From the NCBI RefSeq assembly GCF_001677475.2, contig NZ_CP015229.1: DNA of 64,000 bases; one strand, given 5' to 3'. The DNA is from Escherichia coli. Lineage in GTDB: Bacteria > Pseudomonadota > Gammaproteobacteria > Enterobacterales > Enterobacteriaceae. This document shows, piece by piece, positions 18,766-64,000 of this stretch (positions are counted from its first letter, which is position 1; each line of letters opens with the position of its first letter). Below the pieces are notes generated by a model, which worked only from the letters and a program-made list of their open reading frames with translations, searched no databases and was not told the origin of the DNA. The position numbers and the translations under genes were made by a program.

Positions 18766-21198
18766 ATGAGTGTGATTGCGCAGGCAGGGGCGAAAGGTCG
18801 TCAACTGCATAAATTTGGTGGCAGTAGTCTGGCTGATGTGAAGTGTTATTTGCGTGTCGCGGGCATTATGGCGGAGTACTCTCAGCCCGACGATATGATG
18901 GTGGTTTCCGCCGCCGGTAGCACCACTAACCAGTTGATTAACTGGTTGAAACTAAGCCAGACCGATCGTCTCTCTGCGCATCAGGTTCAACAAACGCTAC
19001 GTCGTTATCAATGCGATCTGATTAGCGGCCTGTTACCCGCTGAAGAAGCCGATAGCCTTATTAGCGCCTTTGTCAGCGATCTTGAACGCCTGGCGGCGCT
19101 ACTCGACAGCGGTATTAACGACGCGGTGTATGCGGAAGTGGTGGGCCACGGTGAAGTGTGGTCGGCGCGCCTGATGTCTGCGGTGCTTAACCAACAAGGG
19201 CTGTCAGCGGCCTGGCTTGATGCCCGCGAGTTTTTACGCGCTGAACGCGCTGCGCAACCGCAGGTTGATGAAGGGCTTTCTTACCCGTTGCTGCAACAGC
19301 TACTGGTACAACATCCGGGCAAACGTCTGGTGGTGACCGGGTTTATCAGCCGTAACAACGCCGGTGAAACGGTGCTGCTGGGGCGTAACGGTTCCGACTA
19401 TTCCGCGACACAAATCGGTGCGCTGGCGGGTGTTTCTCGTGTAACCATCTGGAGCGACGTCGCCGGGGTATACAGTGCCGACCCGCGTAAAGTGAAAGAT
19501 GCCTGTCTGCTGCCATTGCTGCGTCTGGATGAGGCCAGCGAACTGGCGCGTCTGGCGGCTCCCGTTCTTCACGCCCGTACTTTACAGCCGGTTTCTGGCA
19601 GCGAAATTGACCTGCAGCTGCGCTGTAGCTACACGCCGGATCAAGGTTCCACGCGCATTGAACGCGTGCTGGCCTCCGGTACTGGTGCGCGTATTGTCAC
19701 CAGCCACGATGATGTCTGTTTGATTGAGTTCCAGGTGCCCGCCAGTCAGGATTTCAAACTGGCGCATAAAGAGATCGACCAAATCCTGAAACGTGCCCAG
19801 GTGCGTCCACTGGCGGTTGGCGTGCATAACGATCGCCAGTTGCTGCAATTTTGCTACACCTCCGAAGTGGCCGACAGTGCGCTGAAAATCCTCGACGAAG
19901 CTGGATTACCTGGCGAACTGCGCCTGCGTCAGGGGCTGGCGCTGGTGGCGATGGTTGGGGCGGGCGTAACCCGTAACCCGCTGCATTGCCACCGCTTCTG
20001 GCAGCAACTGAAAGGCCAGCCGGTCGAATTTACCTGGCAGTCGGATGACGGCATCAGCCTGGTGGCAGTACTGCGCACCGGACCGACCGAAAGCCTGATT
20101 CAGGGGCTGCATCAGTCCGTCTTCCGCGCAGAAAAACGCATCGGCCTGGTATTGTTCGGCAAGGGCAATATCGGTTCCCGCTGGCTGGAACTGTTCGCCC
20201 GTGAGCAGAGCACGCTCTCGGCGCGTACCGGCTTTGAATTTGTGCTGGCAGGCGTGGTGGACAGCCGCCGCAGCCTGTTGAGCTATGACGGGCTGGACGC
20301 CAGCCGCGCGTTAGCCTTCTTCAACGATGAAGCGGTCGAGCAGGATGAAGAGTCGCTGTTCCTGTGGATGCGCGCCCATCCGTATGATGATTTAGTGGTG
20401 TTGGACGTTACCGCCAGCCAGCAGCTTGCTGATCAGTATCTCGATTTTGCCAGCCACGGTTTCCACGTCATCAGCGCCAACAAACTAGCAGGAGCCAGCG
20501 ACAGCAATAAATATCGCCAGATCCACGACGCCTTCGAAAAAACCGGGCGTCACTGGCTGTACAACGCCACCGTCGGTGTGGGCTTGCCGATCAACCATAC
20601 CGTGCGCGATCTGATCGACAGCGGCGATACTATTTTGTCGATCAGTGGGATCTTCTCCGGCACGCTCTCCTGGCTGTTCCTGCAATTCGACGGTAGCGTG
20701 CCGTTTACCGAGCTGGTGGATCAGGCGTGGCAGCAGGGCTTAACCGAGCCTGATCCGCGTGATGACCTTTCCGGCAAAGACGTGATGCGCAAGCTGGTGA
20801 TTCTGGCGCGTGAAGCGGGTTACGACATCGAACCAGATCAGGTGCGCGTGGAATCGCTGGTGCCTGCCCATTGCGAAGGCGGTAGCATCGACCATTTCTT
20901 TGAAAACGGCGATGAACTCAACGAGCAGATGTTGCAACGGCTGGAAGCGGCCCGCGAAATGGGGCTGGTGCTGCGCTACGTGGCGCGTTTCGATGCCAAT
21001 GGCAAAGCGCGTGTGGGCGTGGAAGCGGTGCGTGAAGACCATCCGCTGGCATCACTGCTGCCGTGCGATAACGTCTTTGCCATCGAAAGCCGCTGGTATC
21101 GCGATAACCCGCTGGTGATCCGTGGGCCAGGCGCAGGGCGGGATGTCACCGCCGGGGCGATTCAGTCGGATATTAATCGTCTGGCGCAGTTGTTGTAA
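18766..21198 (+). CDS. metL: Bifunctional aspartokinase II / homoserine dehydrogenase II (810 aa)
   Basis: ORF 810 aa starting 3 nt after metB stop; recognised as MetL. Confidence 0.95.
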   Translation: MSVIAQAGAKGRQLHKFGGSSLADVKCYLRVAGIMAEYSQPDDMMVVSAAGSTTNQLINWLKLSQTDRLSAHQVQQTLRRYQCDLISGLLPAEEADSLISAFVSDLERLAALLDSGINDAVYAEVVGHGEVWSARLMSAVLNQQGLSAAWLDAREFLRAERAAQPQVDEGLSYPLLQQLLVQHPGKRLVVTGFISRNNAGETVLLGRNGSDYSATQIGALAGVSRVTIWSDVAGVYSADPRKVKDACLLPLLRLDEASELARLAAPVLHARTLQPVSGSEIDLQLRCSYTPDQGSTRIERVLASGTGARIVTSHDDVCLIEFQVPASQDFKLAHKEIDQILKRAQVRPLAVGVHNDRQLLQFCYTSEVADSALKILDEAGLPGELRLRQGLALVAMVGAGVTRNPLHCHRFWQQLKGQPVEFTWQSDDGISLVAVLRTGPTESLIQGLHQSVFRAEKRIGLVLFGKGNIGSRWLELFAREQSTLSARTGFEFVLAGVVDSRRSLLSYDGLDASRALAFFNDEAVEQDEESLFLWMRAHPYDDLVVLDVTASQQLADQYLDFASHGFHVISANKLAGASDSNKYRQIHDAFEKTGRHWLYNATVGVGLPINHTVRDLIDSGDTILSISGIFSGTLSWLFLQFDGSVPFTELVDQAWQQGLTEPDPRDDLSGKDVMRKLVILAREAGYDIEPDQVRVESLVPAHCEGGSIDHFFENGDELNEQMLQRLEAAREMGLVLRYVARFDANGKARVGVEAVREDHPLASLLPCDNVFAIESRWYRDNPLVIRGPGAGRDVTAGAIQSDINRLAQLL

Positions 21199-21284
21199 GT
21201 TCAGGAGCCCAATTAGGCATGATGCACATGCTTGTTGGGCTTATGGCCTTTAACACAATTTACCTAATTATCATTGAGTTGTAA

Positions 21285-21314
21285 GCCGGATAAGGTGTTC
21301 ACGCTGCATCCGGC
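21285..21314. repeat. REP element downstream of metL
   Basis: gccggataaggtgttcacgctgcatccggc matches REP consensus in inverted orientation. Confidence 0.6.
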
Positions 21315-21443
21315 AAGAAACAATAAATCCGTCTGCCAGGTTTCTTGTAATTCCCATCCTGAATCTTTTTCATCTTCCCTGATTTTTCCTCACCATCATT
21401 GGTCATTTTTCGGTTGACGCCCTTTAGCTTTTCCTTCATCTTT

Positions 21444-21480
21444 ACATCTGGACGTCTAAATGGATAGATGTTCACAACAC
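21444..21480 (+). promoter_or_regulatory. metF operator with MetJ boxes
   Basis: acatctggacgtctaaatggatagatg contains GGACGTCT-type met boxes just upstream of metF. Confidence 0.6.
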
Positions 21481-21511
21481 AACATATAACTACAAGCGAT
21501 TGATGAGGTAA

Positions 21512-22405
<894 letters not shown>

Positions 22406-22679
22406 GTATTGTGGCTCTTGTAAAAATCACACAGTGATCACAAATTTTAAACAGAGCACAAAATGCTGCCTCGAAATGAGGGCGGGAAAATAAGGTTATC
22501 AACCTTGTTTTCTCCCTCATTACTTGAAGGGTACCAAGCTAAAACCTTTTTTTATAAAGCACTTGTCCGAAATCGGACATAATCAAAAAGGCTTAATTAC
22601 GATCAATTTGATCTACATCTCTTTAACCAACAATATGTAAGATCTCAACTATCGCATCCGTGGATTAATTCAATTATAA

Positions 22680-24914
<2,235 letters not shown>

Positions 24915-25007
24915 TCTGACCTTCTTCAGCGACTGCCTTTCATGCAGTCGCTGAAGTTTCTTTACCGGCGTATAGTGTCCACAGGAAAACTACACACTGG
25001 ATCTCAC

Positions 25008-25446
25008 ATGTCTGCCGCAGGAAAGAGCAACCCACTGGCAATCAGTGGCCTGGTTGTGCTCACACTTATCTGGAGTTATAGCTGGATTTTCATGAAGCAA
25101 GTCACCAGCTACATCGGTGCCTTCGACTTCACCGCCTTACGCTGCATTTTCGGCGCTCTCGTTTTATTCATCGTCCTTTTATTACGTGGTCGCGGAATGC
25201 GCCCGACGCCGTTTAAATACACCTTAGCCATCGCCCTGTTACAAACCTGTGGGATGGTTGGCCTGGCGCAGTGGGCGCTGGTCAGCGGCGGAGCGGGGAA
25301 GGTGGCGATCCTGAGCTATACCATGCCGTTCTGGGTGGTGATTTTCGCCGCGTTGTTTCTCGGTGAACGCCTGCGACGTGGGCAATATTTCGCGATAATG
25401 ATTGCCGCTTTCGGCTTATTTTTGGTGTTGCAGCCGTGGCAACTCG
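25008..25446 (+). pseudogene. yijE: yijE 5' fragment (codons 1-146 of a 301-aa EamA/DMT transporter), truncated by IS insertion
   Basis: [22 protein letters not shown]...LVLQPWQL then frame enters the IS and stops after 1 codon; 146 + 155 native codons = 301, the K-12 YijE length. Confidence 0.85.
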
Positions 25447-25539
25447 TATGAGACGACAATAACTCAGTCCGCCTGGCGCCGATTATTCTGGCCGGTTTTG
25501 TAACCTGAGTGTCATTTACATGATCCAACAGGAAATGGC

Positions 25540-27039
25540 GTGACGCTCAATACTTCTCAGGTCAGTTACTATATGACTCAGCGTAAGAAAGGTATAACTC
25601 AGCATATCTCGGCCATGAAGGCTGGTATCTCAGTCCGTTCTGGTCGTCGGATCGAAAAAGGAGAGTGGGCAAAAAACAGTGTTCGGCACTGGCGCACACG
25701 CAAAGATCCTCTGGAAGCTGTGTGGGACAGCATGCTTGTTCCTCTGTTGAAAGAGAGGCCGGCTCTGACACCAACAACTCTACTGGAGATGCTACAGGAT
25801 AAATATCCCGGCCAGTACCCCAACAGCCTTCGAAGAACAATGCAACGGCGGGTTCGCGAATGGAAACTACAGTATGGTACAGAGCAGGAGGTCATGTTCC
25901 GCCAGCAACATCAGCCCGGCCTGCGAGGCCTGTCGGACTTTACTGAACTGAAAGGTGTAGTTGTCACCATCGCCGGTAAGTTGTTGGCGCATAAGTTGTA
26001 TCACTTCCGTCTGGAATGGAGCCACTGGAGCTGGATGCGGGTTGTTCTGGGTGGTGAGAGCTTCTCTGCTCTGGCTGAAGGCCTGCAGGAAGCCCTCGGA
26101 CAACTGGGCGGAGTGCCGGTAGAACATAAAACGGACAGCCTGAGGGCAGCATGGAAACAACAGGGCGAAGATGGACGCCGCGAGCTGACTGAGCGTTATG
26201 CTACTCTCTGTCAGCACTACGGAATGCAGGGCGTACACAATAATGCCGGTCGGGGCCACGAAAATGGCTCGGTTGAAAGTGCCCACGGACATCTGAAAAG
26301 GCGTATCTGTCAGGCGCTGATACTGCGGGGCAGTAACGACTTCAGCACCATAGAAGAATATCAGGCCTTCATCACTCAGCAGGTTATGCGGCACAACCGT
26401 AACAATCAGGATCTGGTCAAGGAAGAACGTCTTCATCTGAAACCGCTGCCGCTTCGTCGCAGTGCTGACTATGATGAGCTGACTGTGAGGGTTAGTCGCA
26501 GCAGTACCATCAATGTGAAGCACGTCGTCTACAGCGTACCTTCCCGGCTTGTAGGTCAACTGTTACGGGTCAGGTTATGGGACGATCGTCTGAGCTGTTA
26601 CGTTGGCAGCAGCGAGGTCATGAGCTGCCCTCGCGTCAGACCAGAAAAAGGGAAGACGCGGGCCCGTCGTATCGACTTCCGACATGTGATCGACAGTCTG
26701 GCAAAAAAGCCCGGTGCGTTCTGCCATGCAACGCTGAGAAATGACATCCTGCCGGACGATGAATGGCGGAGGCTGTGGCGTCGCTTATGTAATCATCTGG
26801 AGCCCGATATGGCAGGAAGGCTGATGGTACATGCCCTGAAACTGGCTGCAGGATACGACGATATCTCAGTCGTGGCAAAAGGTATGGAGCAGATGCTGAA
26901 TACCCCGGGAAACGTGGATCTGCACCGGCTGATGCGCTTCCTGGGTATAAAAGAAAAGGCGTTGCCGGTAGTCAATGTGATACAGCATAACCTGAGCAGT
27001 TATGAGCAACTACTGCGTGGCAAGGGAGGTTCGCAGTGA
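25540..27039 (+). CDS. istA: IS21-family transposase IstA (up to 499 aa; start uncertain, GTG at 25540 or ATG at 25573)
   Basis: N-terminal HTH-like region, central DDE-type integrase-like region, C-terminal extension; followed by overlapping istB. Confidence 0.8.
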   Translation: MTLNTSQVSYYMTQRKKGITQHISAMKAGISVRSGRRIEKGEWAKNSVRHWRTRKDPLEAVWDSMLVPLLKERPALTPTTLLEMLQDKYPGQYPNSLRRTMQRRVREWKLQYGTEQEVMFRQQHQPGLRGLSDFTELKGVVVTIAGKLLAHKLYHFRLEWSHWSWMRVVLGGESFSALAEGLQEALGQLGGVPVEHKTDSLRAAWKQQGEDGRRELTERYATLCQHYGMQGVHNNAGRGHENGSVESAHGHLKRRICQALILRGSNDFSTIEEYQAFITQQVMRHNRNNQDLVKEERLHLKPLPLRRSADYDELTVRVSRSSTINVKHVVYSVPSRLVGQLLRVRLWDDRLSCYVGSSEVMSCPRVRPEKGKTRARRIDFRHVIDSLAKKPGAFCHATLRNDILPDDEWRRLWRRLCNHLEPDMAGRLMVHALKLAAGYDDISVVAKGMEQMLNTPGNVDLHRLMRFLGIKEKALPVVNVIQHNLSSYEQLLRGKGGSQ

Positions 27040-27791
27040 GCAATATCCATCACCTTGAACATAGCCTGCGTAAACTACGCCTGACACGAGTTGGAGCTGA
27101 ATGGCACGCTCTGGAAAAACGAGCGCTGGCAGAAGGCTGGACACCATCGCGCTATCTTCTGACGCTATGCAATGAAGAACTCCTGTGGCGCGAGAGTGAA
27201 AAACTGCGTCGTTATAAAAAGGAGGCCCGGTTGCCAGTTGCCAAAACGCTGAGCGAATACGACTTCAGTCAGGTGCCGGAACTGAATGGAGCTCAGTTCC
27301 GGCAACTCTGTGAAACGACAGACTGGGTTGATGCAGGAGAAAACGTTCTGCTGTTCGGAGCCAGCGGGTTGGGGAAAAGCCATCTGGCGGCAGCGATCGT
27401 GGATGGCGTAGTAGGTCAGGGCTACCGGGCCCGGTTCTACAGCGCAGGAGAGCTGTTGCAGGAACTACGTAAAGCCAGAGCTCAGTTGAAACTGAATGAG
27501 CTGCTACTGAAACTGGATCGCTACCGGGTGATAGTGGTGGATGATCTTGGCTATGTAAAACGCGATAGTGCCGAAACGGGTGTGCTGTTCGAGTTAATAG
27601 CGCATCGCTATGAACGTGGGAGCCTGGTGATAACCAGTAACCATCCGTTCAGCATGTGGGGCAGCATCTTCGTGGATGAGACTATGGCGGTGGCTGCGGC
27701 AGACAGGCTGATCCATCACGGATATATGTTCGAACTGAAAGGGGAAAGCTACAGGAAAAAGACAGCGAAGGCAGTAACAAGCGCGACTTGA
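27036..27791 (+). CDS. istB: IS21-family helper ATPase IstB (251 aa, GTG start overlapping istA stop)
   Basis: Walker A GASGLGKSH and Walker B VIVVDDLGY (AAA+/DnaC-like); GGAGG RBS at 27025-27029; GTG at 27036 overlaps TGA of istA. Confidence 0.85.
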   Translation: MSNIHHLEHSLRKLRLTRVGAEWHALEKRALAEGWTPSRYLLTLCNEELLWRESEKLRRYKKEARLPVAKTLSEYDFSQVPELNGAQFRQLCETTDWVDAGENVLLFGASGLGKSHLAAAIVDGVVGQGYRARFYSAGELLQELRKARAQLKLNELLLKLDRYRVIVVDDLGYVKRDSAETGVLFELIAHRYERGSLVITSNHPFSMWGSIFVDETMAVAAADRLIHHGYMFELKGESYRKKTAKAVTSAT

Positions 27792-27856
27792 TGTCGCCCT
27801 GAAGGGTGCGGCCAGTATAGTTGGCGCGAGTCGGCAAAACTAGTTGACGTCTAATA

Positions 27857-28329
27857 AACTCGATTTTTCTTCGATGAAAAGTGCCATGCTGGCAATCCTC
27901 TCCGGTGTTAGTTGGGGGGCGAGCGCGATTGTTGCTAAACGTCTGTATGCCCGTCATCCGCGCGTGGATTTATTGTCGTTAACATCCTGGCAGATGCTCT
28001 ATGCGGCGCTGGTGATGAGTGTGGTCGCTTTACTGGTGCCGCAACGTGAAATTGACTGGCAGCCCACCGTGTTCTGGGCGCTGGCCTACAGTGCGATTCT
28101 GGCGACGGCGCTGGCGTGGAGCTTATGGCTGTTTGTGCTGAAAAACTTGCCTGCCAGTATTGCCAGCTTAAGCACACTGGCCGTTCCCGTTTGCGGCGTA
28201 CTCTTTTCCTGGTGGCTGCTCGGTGAGAATCCGGGGGCCGTTGAAGGTAGCGGTATTGTGCTGATTGTGCTGGCACTGGCGCTGGTGAGCCGTAAGAAAA
28301 AAGAAGCCGTCAGTGTAAAAAGGATCTGA
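27857..28329 (+). pseudogene. yijE: yijE 3' fragment (codons 147-301), separated from the 5' fragment by the IS
   Basis: Frame [20 protein letters not shown]...[10 protein letters not shown] continues the EamA-domain transporter; first two codons derive from the target-site duplication. Confidence 0.85.
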
Positions 28330-28355
28330 ATTTTTTCTTCATGTGGGGCGATCTC

Positions 28356-28973
28356 TTATTTAACAAAATAACGATAATGCCCCACCATCCGCCAGCTAAA
28401 CAGCACATCTTCTTCCTGCGCGCCTGCGCCAATGTTATGTATCACCAGCGGCGTACCGTCGCGGGCGAAGCCATCTGACACCACCCCAATATGTGCCAGC
28501 CCGTTATCTAATCGCCAGGAGACAATATCGCCCGCTTGATAGTCACTGGGGTTCTTGCTGGTGGGGCGTGTTTTATCGTGGCGGGTAAACCAGGTTTCCA
28601 GATTAGGCACCCGACGGTGATCGATGTTGCTGTCCGGGCGCTTTAACTTCCACTTTTGCGGATAATCGGCAAAATTCTTCGCCATATCTTCGTGAACCAG
28701 TTTCTGCAAATCGACCTTCTGGCTGCGCAATGCACGGATCACCACATCGGAACATACACCGCGTTCTTGCGGGACATCACCGCCAGGATAGGTAAGCTGC
28801 ATATACGCCGGATCGTAAAATAGCGTGCTGCCGATTTGCTGTCTGGCACCGTCTGCGATGGCAAGGTTGGTATTGGCCTGGATTTGTACCACGGTTGGTG
28901 GAACGGCGGGAGATTTTAAGGAGTTGCTGGTAAATGCCGTTAGCAGGCTGAGCAGCGCCAGTGAAGCTTTCAT
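28356..28973 (-). CDS. yijF: DUF1287 secreted protein YijF (205 aa)
   Basis: ORF 205 aa with signal peptide MKASLALLSLLTAFTS; K-12 synteny. Confidence 0.85.
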   Translation of the reverse strand: MKASLALLSLLTAFTSNSLKSPAVPPTVVQIQANTNLAIADGARQQIGSTLFYDPAYMQLTYPGGDVPQERGVCSDVVIRALRSQKVDLQKLVHEDMAKNFADYPQKWKLKRPDSNIDHRRVPNLETWFTRHDKTRPTSKNPSDYQAGDIVSWRLDNGLAHIGVVSDGFARDGTPLVIHNIGAGAQEEDVLFSWRMVGHYRYFVK

Positions 28974-49339: not shown

Positions 49340-49459
49340 GGCAAAAAAAAGCGGATCCTGGAGATCCGCAAAAGTTCACGTTGGCTTTAGTTATTCGAGT
49401 TGAGAAACTCTCGAAACGGGCAGTGACTTCAAGGGTTAAAAGAGGTGCCGCTCCGTTTC
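49340..49459 (-). ncRNA. oxyS: OxyS small regulatory RNA (oxidative-stress sRNA)
   Basis: Minus-strand sequence GAAACGGAGCGGCACCUCUUUUAACCCUUGAAGUCACUGCCCGUUUCGAGAG...GCGGAUCUCCAGGAUCCGCUUUUUUUUGCC matches OxyS as recalled; terminal hairpin plus U8; divergent from oxyR. Confidence 0.9.
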
Positions 49460-52184: not shown

Positions 52185-53351
52185 ATGATCGAACACTATA
52201 TTCGAGGGTTTGAGGAAGAACTGCGTGAGATCCGCCATCAGATCCACGAAAACCCGGAGCTGGGATTACAAGAATTTAAAACCAGTGCTTTGGTGGCGGA
52301 AAAGCTGCGTCAGTGGGGCTATGAAGTAGAGCAAGGACTGGCGACGACGGGGATAGTGGCCACGTTAAAAGTGGGCGACGGAGAGAAAAGTATTGGCCTG
52401 CGGGCGGATATGGATGCGCTGCCAATTTATGAAAATAGTGGCAAGCCCTGGGCCAGTAAACATCCTGGTTTAATGCACGCCTGCGGGCATGACGGGCATA
52501 CCACCATACTGCTGGGGGCCGCGCGTTATTTTGCCGAAACCCGCCGTTTTAACGGCACGTTACGTCTTATCTTCCAGCCTGCGGAAGAGATGATTAACGG
52601 CGGTGAGATCATGGTTAAAGAGGGGCTTTTTGATCATTTCCCCTGCGATGTCATTTTCGGCATGCATAACATGCCCGGTCTGCCGGTGGGTAAGTTTTAT
52701 TTCCAGCCAGGGGAACTGATGGCGTCAATGGATCAGTTCCATATTACAGTTCGTGGTTGTGGCGGACACGGTGCGATCCCGCACAAAGCCATCGATCCGG
52801 TGCTGGTTGCCGCACATATCACCACCGCATTACAAAGCATTGTGTCGCGCAATGTCGATCCGCTGGAAGCGGCGGTAATTACCGTCGGCAGCATTGTTGC
52901 GGGTGAGGCGGCTAACGTCATTCCTGACAGTGCTGAGATGAAAATCAGCGTCCGCTCTCTTAGCCGCGATACCCGACAACTTCTTCTGACCCGTATTCCT
53001 GCTCTGGCACAAACCCAGGCTGCCAGCTTTGGTGCTACGGCTGAGGTTACGCATGTTAACGGTACACCGGTATTAGTGAATGACGAGGAGATGGCGCGCT
53101 TCGCCTGGCAGGTGGCGTGTAAAACGTTTGGTGAAGATCGGGCCGAGTTTGGCATCAAGCCCCTGATGGGCAGTGAGGATTTCTCTTTCATGCTGGAAGC
53201 CCAGCCGAAAGGCGCTTTTTTGCTGTTCGGTAATGGCGATGTCGGGGAAGGTTCCTGCATGGTGCATAACCCGGGTTACGACTTCAACGATGCAAGTCTG
53301 GTCCCGGCATGCAGCTACTGGGGCGCACTGGTAGAAGCTTGGCTGCAATAA
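52185..53351 (+). CDS. M20D-family amidohydrolase (hippurate hydrolase / N-acyl-amino-acid amidohydrolase-like), 388 aa; accessory gene not in K-12
   Basis: Metal-binding motifs typical of M20D enzymes (HACGHDGH, ...GEE...); GGAA RBS-like upstream; no paralogue recalled at this locus in K-12. Confidence 0.8.
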   Translation: MIEHYIRGFEEELREIRHQIHENPELGLQEFKTSALVAEKLRQWGYEVEQGLATTGIVATLKVGDGEKSIGLRADMDALPIYENSGKPWASKHPGLMHACGHDGHTTILLGAARYFAETRRFNGTLRLIFQPAEEMINGGEIMVKEGLFDHFPCDVIFGMHNMPGLPVGKFYFQPGELMASMDQFHITVRGCGGHGAIPHKAIDPVLVAAHITTALQSIVSRNVDPLEAAVITVGSIVAGEAANVIPDSAEMKISVRSLSRDTRQLLLTRIPALAQTQAASFGATAEVTHVNGTPVLVNDEEMARFAWQVACKTFGEDRAEFGIKPLMGSEDFSFMLEAQPKGAFLLFGNGDVGEGSCMVHNPGYDFNDASLVPACSYWGALVEAWLQ

Positions 53352-53393
53352 ATAAAACAACACACAACAACACTTTTTGGCAAGGAACATGGA

Positions 53394-54710
53394 ATGACGG
53401 CGATCGTAAATGAAACCGTGAGTGTGAAGAAAAAGCCCAGCGGTAAGCGGGTGATTTTTGCTTCGGCGTTTGGCAATGCGCTCGAATTTTTTGATTTTGG
53501 CGTTTACAACTTTTTTGTGGTCTATATCAGTACGCTTTTCTTCCCACCCAGCGCTGATCACAATGTCGCGCTGTTACTGGCATTTGCAACATTTGGCGTG
53601 AGTTTTTTTATGCGCCCGCTTGGTGGAATTATCGTCGGGGCCTGGGCCGATCGCTTCGGACGCAAACCCGCGATGGTGTTCACCATTGCCCTGATGAGCC
53701 TCGGTACACTGATGATCGGCATCGCACCGACGTATGAAACGGCGGGCTATTGGGGAACCGCGACGCTGGTGCTGGCGCGTCTAATTCAGGGCGTTGCGGC
53801 AGGAGGCGAAGTCGGTGCCTCAATGTCTTTGTTGGTTGAATCAGCTCCGGCAAATCGTCGCGGCTTTTACAGCAGTTGGTCACTGGCGACTCAAGGCCTG
53901 GCAACAACCTTTGGTGGTGTTGTCGCTTTAGGTTTAAGCGCATGGCTGCCCTTTGCGACAGGTTCAGAAACCGTAATGGCTGAATGGGGCTGGCGTGTGC
54001 CATTTTTTATTGGCGTGTTATTAGCACCTATCGGTTGCTGGTTGCGTCTGAGCCTGGAAAATGACGTACCTGAGCTAGTGCGCAATAAAAAAGCTGCTAC
54101 CAGCGAAAGCGCGTTCTCTCTGCTCCTGCAACATAAGGCGACTATCGTTAACGGCGTTTTACTCGCTATTGGTAGCACGGTCGCAACCTATATCTCCCTC
54201 TTTTATTACGGCACCTGGGCGGCGAAGTATCTGGCGATGCCTCAACATTATTCTCATGCAGCGATGTTACTGGCGGGCGTTATTACGTTTGTGGGTGCGC
54301 TGCTTGTGGGGATGTTGTGCGATTCGGTCGGGCGTAAAAAGCTGATTTTAATCTCCCGTGTGATGGTGCTGATCTGTAGCTGGCCGTCATTCTGGCTGTT
54401 GGTGAATTACCCAAGCCCTGGCATGTTGCTGACGGTGGTTTTCGTGATGGTCAGCTTTACCACGCTTGGCGGTGTGCCGGTAATGTTGCTGATCTCTGAA
54501 CTGTTGCCGAAACGGATTCGGGCATTGGGTTTTGCGCTGGTTTATAGCATTGGTGTGGCAATCTTTGGCGGTTTTGCTCAATATTTCGCTACGCAATCCA
54601 TCGTGTTGCTGGATAGTTTGACAGCTCCGGCGTGGTATTTGGGTGGAGGCACGTTGCTGTCGATGCTGGCGTTGTTGTACGTAAAAGAACCGGCCAAAGA
54701 ATTGCAGTAA
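53394..54710 (+). CDS. MFS transporter, metabolite:H+ symporter (MHS) family-like (438 aa); accessory gene not in K-12
   Basis: ~12 predicted hydrophobic helices; MFS loop motif [10 protein letters not shown]; MHS-like signatures [26 protein letters not shown] (compare ProP/KgtP/ShiA). Confidence 0.8.
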
Positions 54711-56963: not shown

Positions 56964-57090
56964 GATGTATCCTGAAAAATTAAAGTACGCGGCGATTGTA
57001 GGGATTGCTCATCAGATGTCCAGATCTTGATGAATTCCTATTTGTGAGCTACGTCTGGACAGTAACTTGTTACAACCTGTAGCATCCACT

Positions 57091-57331
57091 TGCCGGTCCT
57101 GTGAGTTAATAGGGAATCCAGTGCGAATCTGGAGCTGACGCGCAGCGGTAAGGAAAGGTGCGATGATCGCGTTATGCGGACACTGCCATTCGGTGGGAAG
57201 TCATCATCTCTTAGTATCTTAGATACCCCTCCAAGCCCGAAGACCTGCCGGCCAACGTCGCATCTGGTTCTCATCATCGCGTAATATTGATGAAACCTGC
57301 GGCATCCTTCTTCTATTGTGGATGCTTTACA
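57091..57331 (+). promoter_or_regulatory. btuB 5' leader containing adenosylcobalamin riboswitch
   Basis: Leader matches the btuB riboswitch as recalled (gccggtcctgtgagttaatagggaatccagtgcgaatctggagctgacgcgcagcggtaaggaaaggtgcg...gaagacctgccggcc B12-box region). Confidence 0.85.
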
Positions 57332-60351: not shown

Positions 60352-61893
<1,542 letters not shown>

Positions 61894-61978
61894 CCTTAAA
61901 GAACTGTGCTTTGCAGTGCTCACACAGATTGTCTGATAGAAAGTGAAAAGCAAGGCGTCTTGCGAAGCAGACTGATAC

Positions 61979-62054
61979 GTCCCCTTCGTCTAGAGGCCCA
62001 GGACACCGCCCTTTCACGGCGGTAACAGGGGTTCGAATCCCCTAGGGGACGCCA
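61979..62054 (+). tRNA. gltT: tRNA-Glu (anticodon UUC) in 16S-23S spacer
   Basis: GTCCCCTTCGTCTAGAGGCCCAGGACACCGCCCTTTCACGGCGGTAACAGGGGTTCGAATCCCCTAGGGGACGCCA; cloverleaf with TTC anticodon. Confidence 0.97.
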
Positions 62055-62247
62055 CTTGCTGGTTTGTGAGTGAAAGTCACCTGCCTTAATATCTCAAAAC
62101 TCATCTTCGGGTGACGTTTGAGATATTTGCTCTTTAAAAATCTGGATCAAGCTGAAAATTGAAACACTGAACAACGAAAGTTGTTCGTGAGTCTCTCAAA
62201 TTTTCGCAACACGATGATGAATCGAAAGAAACATCTTCGGGTTGTGA

Positions 62248-64000
<1,753 letters not shown>

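Follow-up and report, generated by a model that had tools for sequence, protein, structure and literature searches.

The gene yijE, whose product is assigned to the EamA/DMT transporters, is split in a 64,000-nucleotide stretch of the Escherichia coli chromosome (contig NZ_CP015229.1 of RefSeq assembly GCF_001677475.2; hereafter "the window," to which all positions refer), and the cause is almost certainly the transposition of one copy of ISEc10, a known insertion sequence (IS) of the IS21 family. On the + strand of the window, yijE begins with an ATG at 25008, and its 5′ frame runs for 146 codons plus one nucleotide to 25446, where the gene is interrupted after nucleotide 439. A block of 2410 base pairs (bp) follows (25447–27856), after which the yijE frame is picked up again from G27862 and continues for 155 codons to a TGA at 28327–28329, giving 301 codons for the two parts together. 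The hexamer AACTCG stands on both sides of the block, at 25441–25446 and 27857–27862, and the repeat cannot be extended by even one base in either direction. AACTCG occurs 25 times in the window when both strands are pooled; because the two copies at the insertion adjoin the outermost bases of a 48-nucleotide terminal inverted repeat, this pair is more than chance. A preliminary description of the same DNA had reported a yijE frame of 146 codons, a break of ~2.4 kilobases (kb) and 155 further codons, 301 in total, and its coordinates all agree with those given here.

An uninterrupted yijE was rebuilt in silico by deleting 25447–27862, i.e., the element and one AACTCG, which leaves 906 nucleotides encoding 301 codons. 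We took 5426 complete RefSeq E. coli genomes as the species comparison set, and in 5425 of them the rebuilt gene maps to one place, with at least 80% of its length aligned. Among the matches listed, coverage is 100%, the highest identity is 99.1%, and the annotation is "cystine transporter YijE." Alignments to the yijE genes of EC1515 and E. coli C are gapless, with 8 and 10 substitutions, respectively, and the rebuilt protein has one amino-acid difference from theirs (M131 in place of L131), which is also the single difference between the 301-residue protein and WP_001271242.1, likewise named "cystine transporter YijE." The gene order at the locus, metF-katG-yijE-yijF-gldA, is usual for E. 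coli. By its locus (katG-yijE-yijF) and its near-identity once the IS is removed, the split gene can be identified as the E. coli yijE ortholog.

These uninterrupted alleles also show what the site looks like when empty. AACTCG is present once, at nucleotides 434–439 of the gene, in each of the two that were inspected at every base, those of EC1515 and E. coli C. Since the empty alleles align without gaps and hold one AACTCG, the comparison identifies the 2.4-kb block as an insertion and the flanking hexamers as a genuine target-site duplication. The preliminary description had proposed this duplication and had named an empty site with a single AACTCG as its test; each of the two alleles provides one, and 6 bp is also the commonest duplication size in other ISEc10 copies (see below).

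The inserted block has the make-up of a complete IS21-family element. Membership was judged by an istA gene followed by a shorter istB, imperfect inverted repeats, a target duplication of 4–8 bp, a length of ~2–2.7 kb, and, within IstA, a DDE triad with K or R seven residues past the E. The left terminal inverted repeat (IRL; 25447–25494, + strand) and the right one (IRR; 27809–27856, − strand) lie at the exact ends of the element; each is 48 nucleotides long, and they are imperfect, being 71% complementary overall and matching at 11 of the 13 outermost nucleotides. With them go the 6-bp AACTCG and the length of 2410 bp. Between the repeats, istA (25540–27039; 499 amino acids, intact) and istB (27036–27791; 251 amino acids) both start with GTG and lie on the + strand, overlapping by the four nucleotides GTGA, in which istA stops and istB starts. 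A search of the element ends for repeated IstA-binding motifs (14-mers with up to three mismatches) found only the in-register terminal inverted repeat.

Both proteins score above the curated cutoffs of their families, which bears out the IS21-family assignment of the preliminary description. IstA reaches 226.4 bits against NF033546 (cutoff 160) and covers profile positions 2–293 of 294; its sole Pfam match is Mu-transpos_C_2, and NCBI lists a protein identical to it as an ISEc10 family transposase. Its candidate triad, picked by eye from the motif, is D133/D199/E246, with K253 as the basic residue. IstB, the AAA+ helper ATPase, reaches 266.7 bits against NF038214 (cutoff 200), aligns over residues 11–243 with the IS5376 IstB structures 8q3w, 8q4d, and 5bq5 (E = 4e-45), and carries a Walker A motif (GASGLGKS, 108–115) and a Walker B motif (VIVVDD, 165–170). 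IstA has the same length as in four other copies of the element and differs from three intact ones at 2–4 residues; taken together, IstA and IstB equal in length the proteins of three other intact copies, with differences of 1–4 residues.

When 25447–27856 was used as a megablast query, matches were found in 898 of the 5426 complete genomes, with a near full-length copy in 525. The full-length matches span exactly query positions 1–2410 at identities from 98.5% (the copy in CFT073) to 99.8%, and are annotated in RefSeq by PGAP as "IS21-like element ISEc10 family transposase" and "helper ATPase IstB," so that RefSeq itself gives the matching copies the name ISEc10. The window holds this single copy and no partial ones. 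ISEc10 was first annotated in uropathogenic E. coli CFT073. The CFT073 copy shares with ours the length of 2410 bp, the termini TATGAGACGACAAT...GTTGACGTCTAATA, and the layout and lengths of istA and istB, and it too is flanked by a 6-bp duplication (GTCTTC); it differs in its insertion site, in four IstA residues and one IstB residue, and in overall nucleotide sequence (98.5% identity). Closer still are the copies in OkiPb01695 and RM9088, at 99.8% nucleotide identity. With IS21 and IS5376, the members of the family whose mechanism has been studied, the element has in common a transposase gene followed by one for an AAA+ helper, imperfect inverted repeats, and a short target duplication, whereas its IstA is too divergent from the solved chains for a sequence search to reach them. 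The ends of IS21-family elements are usually given as TG...CA; those of the window element, fixed by the empty site, are TATGAG...CTAATA.

The duplication at yijE is of the size most often seen with this element. Among 13 other complete ISEc10 copies, the target duplication measures 6 bp in eight (two of which represent the same site), 5 bp in two, and 7 bp in one, and two copies have none. The identical IstA is encoded in many unrelated settings, among them prophages, plasmids, and other ISs. Under drug selection, CFT073 has been seen to acquire ISEc10 insertions de novo near lpp (PMC7482066), and an insertion in the afa promoter region has been described in an ST131 strain (PMC8764528). Because the element looks intact and recently active, its insertion into yijE is probably young, and ISEc10 is probably still mobile in this lineage. 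If transposition here proceeded as is understood for the IS21 family, the DDE transposase IstA would bind the terminal inverted repeats, and the AAA+ ATPase IstB would capture and bend the target DNA and recruit IstA; strand transfer at staggered positions 6 bp apart, followed by gap repair, would then have doubled AACTCG. A slightly shorter ISEc10 variant (2409 bp, 98.9% identical to the window copy) is present in at least nine listed genomes. In NZ_AP021946.1 (4586441–4589449), its istB is frameshifted, flanking duplication is absent, and the istB of a different IS21-like element is its neighbor.

The interrupted allele is rare. The interrupted locus (24700–28600) is covered to at least 80% in none of the 5426 complete genomes, and an exact 37-nucleotide pattern of the left junction gave no matches among GTDB species representatives; the source genome thus belongs to neither set. 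The 147-residue truncated product is, however, on record in the Logan assembly SRR25942434, with the same contig in seven samples. This contig corresponds to window positions 19008–25475 at 100% identity over 6468 nucleotides; it crosses the left junction and ends 29 nucleotides inside the IS. Four NCBI draft assemblies have an annotated YijE of 146 residues, marked "partial" and carrying the lineage-specific M131. In the one of the four that was read, GCA_012665465.1, the contig matches the window at 100% over 3437 nucleotides and ends at 25444, two nucleotides before the junction. A contig break at the edge of the IS suggests more than one ISEc10 copy in those genomes.

From the Logan junction contig and the four partial products it follows that the allele is not unique to one record; it is rare and common to a small lineage. 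Of the earlier claim that the insertion is strain-specific, the rarity therefore stands (0 of 5426 complete genomes) and the restriction to one strain does not. Its proposed use as a lineage marker holds up, with modest value: the junction between GCAGCCGTGGCAACTCG and TATGAGACGACAA is a clean marker, by polymerase chain reaction or by k-mers, of a rare E. coli lineage. The exact KatG protein encoded next to yijE is too widespread to serve this end (62,530 blocks).

Look-ups of exact proteins were also made for possible products of the 3′ half of the gene. A 161-residue form starting at a TTG was not on record. Forms of 151, 155, and 154 residues were set aside, as their look-ups gave only frameshifted yijE genes or contigs that start there by chance. 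At the loci of the 151-residue form, both yijE halves lie within about 1 kb, so these loci hold no IS; some of them may be sequencing errors. An insertion hotspot, considered from the 155- and 154-residue look-ups, was likewise rejected: the twelve contigs concerned match the window at 94–98% identity and have the common ATTTCTC allele, and their selection is an effect of the query.

Pfam finds two EamA domains in the rebuilt YijE, at residues 12–141 and 152–289, and the linker between these repeats of five helices each is where the gene breaks off, after codon 146. The 5′ fragment (25008–25446, + strand) comprises codons 1–146 and the first base of codon 147, with the first EamA repeat complete; the 3′ fragment (27863–28329, + strand) makes up, with G27862, codons 147–301 and the stop, with the second repeat complete. 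Because the two repeats are on separate open reading frames (ORFs) 2.4 kb apart, yijE in the window counts as disrupted, not as an intact EamA/DMT member. Translation of the 5′ fragment yields residues 1–146 of YijE plus a valine, 147 amino acids in all, and stops at a TGA inside IRL (25449–25451). The frame of the 3′ fragment is open back to a TTG at 27844, within IRR, which makes an in-frame ORF of 161 codons. No Shine-Dalgarno-like sequence was seen upstream of this TTG or of the ATG at 27874, and a promoter scan of 24850–28450 detected no + strand promoter at the right end of the IS. IRR does contain an outward-facing hexamer resembling a −35 element, TTGACG at 27844–27849, as part of a putative promoter; its −10 partners at a spacing of 16–17 nucleotides are poor (TTTCTT or TTCTTC, in yijE). 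The native promoter can thus now give only YijE(1–146) plus valine, and the second repeat is left with no recognizable promoter or ribosome-binding site.

Given this arrangement, this is most likely a null allele of yijE. The preliminary description had concluded that the strain should lack functional YijE; the loss of full-length YijE can be read directly from the sequence, and the step from there to loss of function is less secure, with both EamA halves preserved as intact ORFs. In EcoCyc (PMC5210515), which cites Yamamoto et al., 2015, YijE is entered as a cystine exporter. The allele therefore probably removes a cystine exporter, and cystine tolerance might change. Polar effects on neighboring genes are unlikely, since yijF is convergent with yijE and katG ends in a terminator of its own (24924–24956). 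The event is of a known kind, an ordinary IS knockout in a transporter gene that is not essential, and implies no new biology. In the ORF listing, the 5′ fragment starts farther upstream, at an ATG (24942) that falls within the katG terminator hairpin, and has 169 amino acids (24942–25451). This longer form is absent from public gene calls and for that reason is probably an artifact of listing the longest ORF.

We found no evidence that contradicts the insertion itself; the points that weigh against our reading concern the name of the element and the fate of the protein. The name ISEc10 is taken from RefSeq/PGAP labels, and a PDB sequence search with IstA returned no matches even at E = 10, with the catalytic triad picked by eye only. 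Loss of YijE function is deduced from the layout of a gene whose two EamA halves both stay open frames. istAB and the 3′ half of yijE are on the same strand, and because no + strand terminator is predicted from istB to that half, some readthrough into it is possible. PMC7482066 cites ISEc10 insertions that raise ampC expression, which makes outward transcription from the element possible as well. On these grounds one could suppose that the gene has become a split transporter and is not null, its 5′ half made from the yijE promoter and its 3′ half by such readthrough or outward transcription, with the two pieces reassembling in the membrane as a working DMT transporter of two pieces. The IS sits exactly in the linker that joins the repeats, with both Pfam EamA domains complete, the 161-codon ORF from TTG 27844 runs in frame through the 3′ half, and TTGACG faces outward at the start of that ORF (27844–27849). 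If true, the insertion would have undone, in nature, the internal duplication and fusion from which the family is thought to have arisen. We nevertheless regard it as very unlikely: the right end of the element has no promoter-like site that scored on the + strand, the best −10 partners for TTGACG are TTTCTT or TTCTTC, TTG 27844 and ATG 27874 both lack a Shine-Dalgarno-like sequence, and nothing in these data supports assembly of YijE from halves. Loss of YijE through the insertion remains the better account.

Two further explanations would do away with the insertion altogether. In one, the IS was misplaced into yijE during assembly and the real chromosome is intact. Copies of an IS are a classic cause of misjoins, and the exact IstA variant is present at many sites elsewhere, but misjoining would not leave perfect copies, on both sides of the IS, of a hexamer that the empty allele has once. 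Furthermore, the Logan contig, an independent assembly of short reads, crosses the left junction at 100% identity, the draft contig in NCBI ends two nucleotides before that junction, and three more assemblies have the 146-residue product. With a perfect duplication and independent contigs in agreement, misassembly is excluded in practice, and we consider it extremely improbable. The other explanation, to which we give the least credence of all, is that the 2.4 kb is ancestral and that unbroken yijE elsewhere arose by precise deletion. This has nothing in its favor beyond logical possibility, whereas 5425 of the 5426 complete genomes, which span the species, carry yijE unbroken and none carries it interrupted, the block is a mobile element in its own right that occupies hundreds of further sites, and the flanking duplication is the signature of an insertion. 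The genome counts and the empty alleles with a single AACTCG refute it, and with it the possibility, left open in the preliminary description, that the 2.4 kb is native sequence. Transposition of ISEc10 into a formerly intact yijE is the reading we retain.

The yijE gene is cut short in other lineages as well. A frameshifted YijE of 185 residues, named in Shigella sonnei 53G, is found on 315 contigs, and forms of 144–172 residues labeled E. coli are on record. Compared as proteins, the listed truncated forms end elsewhere and carry L131, in contrast to the M131 of the window lineage. Overall, yijE appears to be dispensable and to have been lost repeatedly, although sequencing error may account for some of these cases.

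The strain seems to be of a lineage without a close complete genome; NCBI labels the matching drafts E. coli. The chromosomal backbone of the window (1–22000 and 28330–53000) reaches no more than 98.0% identity to any of 5425 complete RefSeq E. coli genomes, and its divergence is fairly even, with 95–99.6% identity per kb to the best match.

Several neighboring features of the window were recorded in addition. Between sthA and fabR, the interval 52185–54710 encodes an M20 amidohydrolase (388 amino acids; TIGR01891, 359 bits) and an MFS metabolite/H+ symporter (438 amino acids; best model TIGR00883, under its curated cutoff). Both genes are presumably absent from the sthA-fabR interval of K-12, and strain 19KM1831 carries at least the amidohydrolase gene. 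Upstream of katG, metL (18766–21198) is followed directly by metF (21515–22405) in the window. Ten E. coli contigs from the KatG look-up have two extra genes upstream of metF, one encoding a protein of 374–376 amino acids with no Pfam match and the other a 517-residue metallophosphatase/5′-nucleotidase; metL lies just beyond these genes in seven of the ten. Rfam matches in 49350–49459, 57077–57266, and 60352–64000 agree with the gene order expected of E. coli: OxyS beside oxyR, a cobalamin riboswitch upstream of btuB, and a ribosomal RNA operon (16S, a tRNA, and the beginning of 23S) whose spacer has a StyR-44 match.

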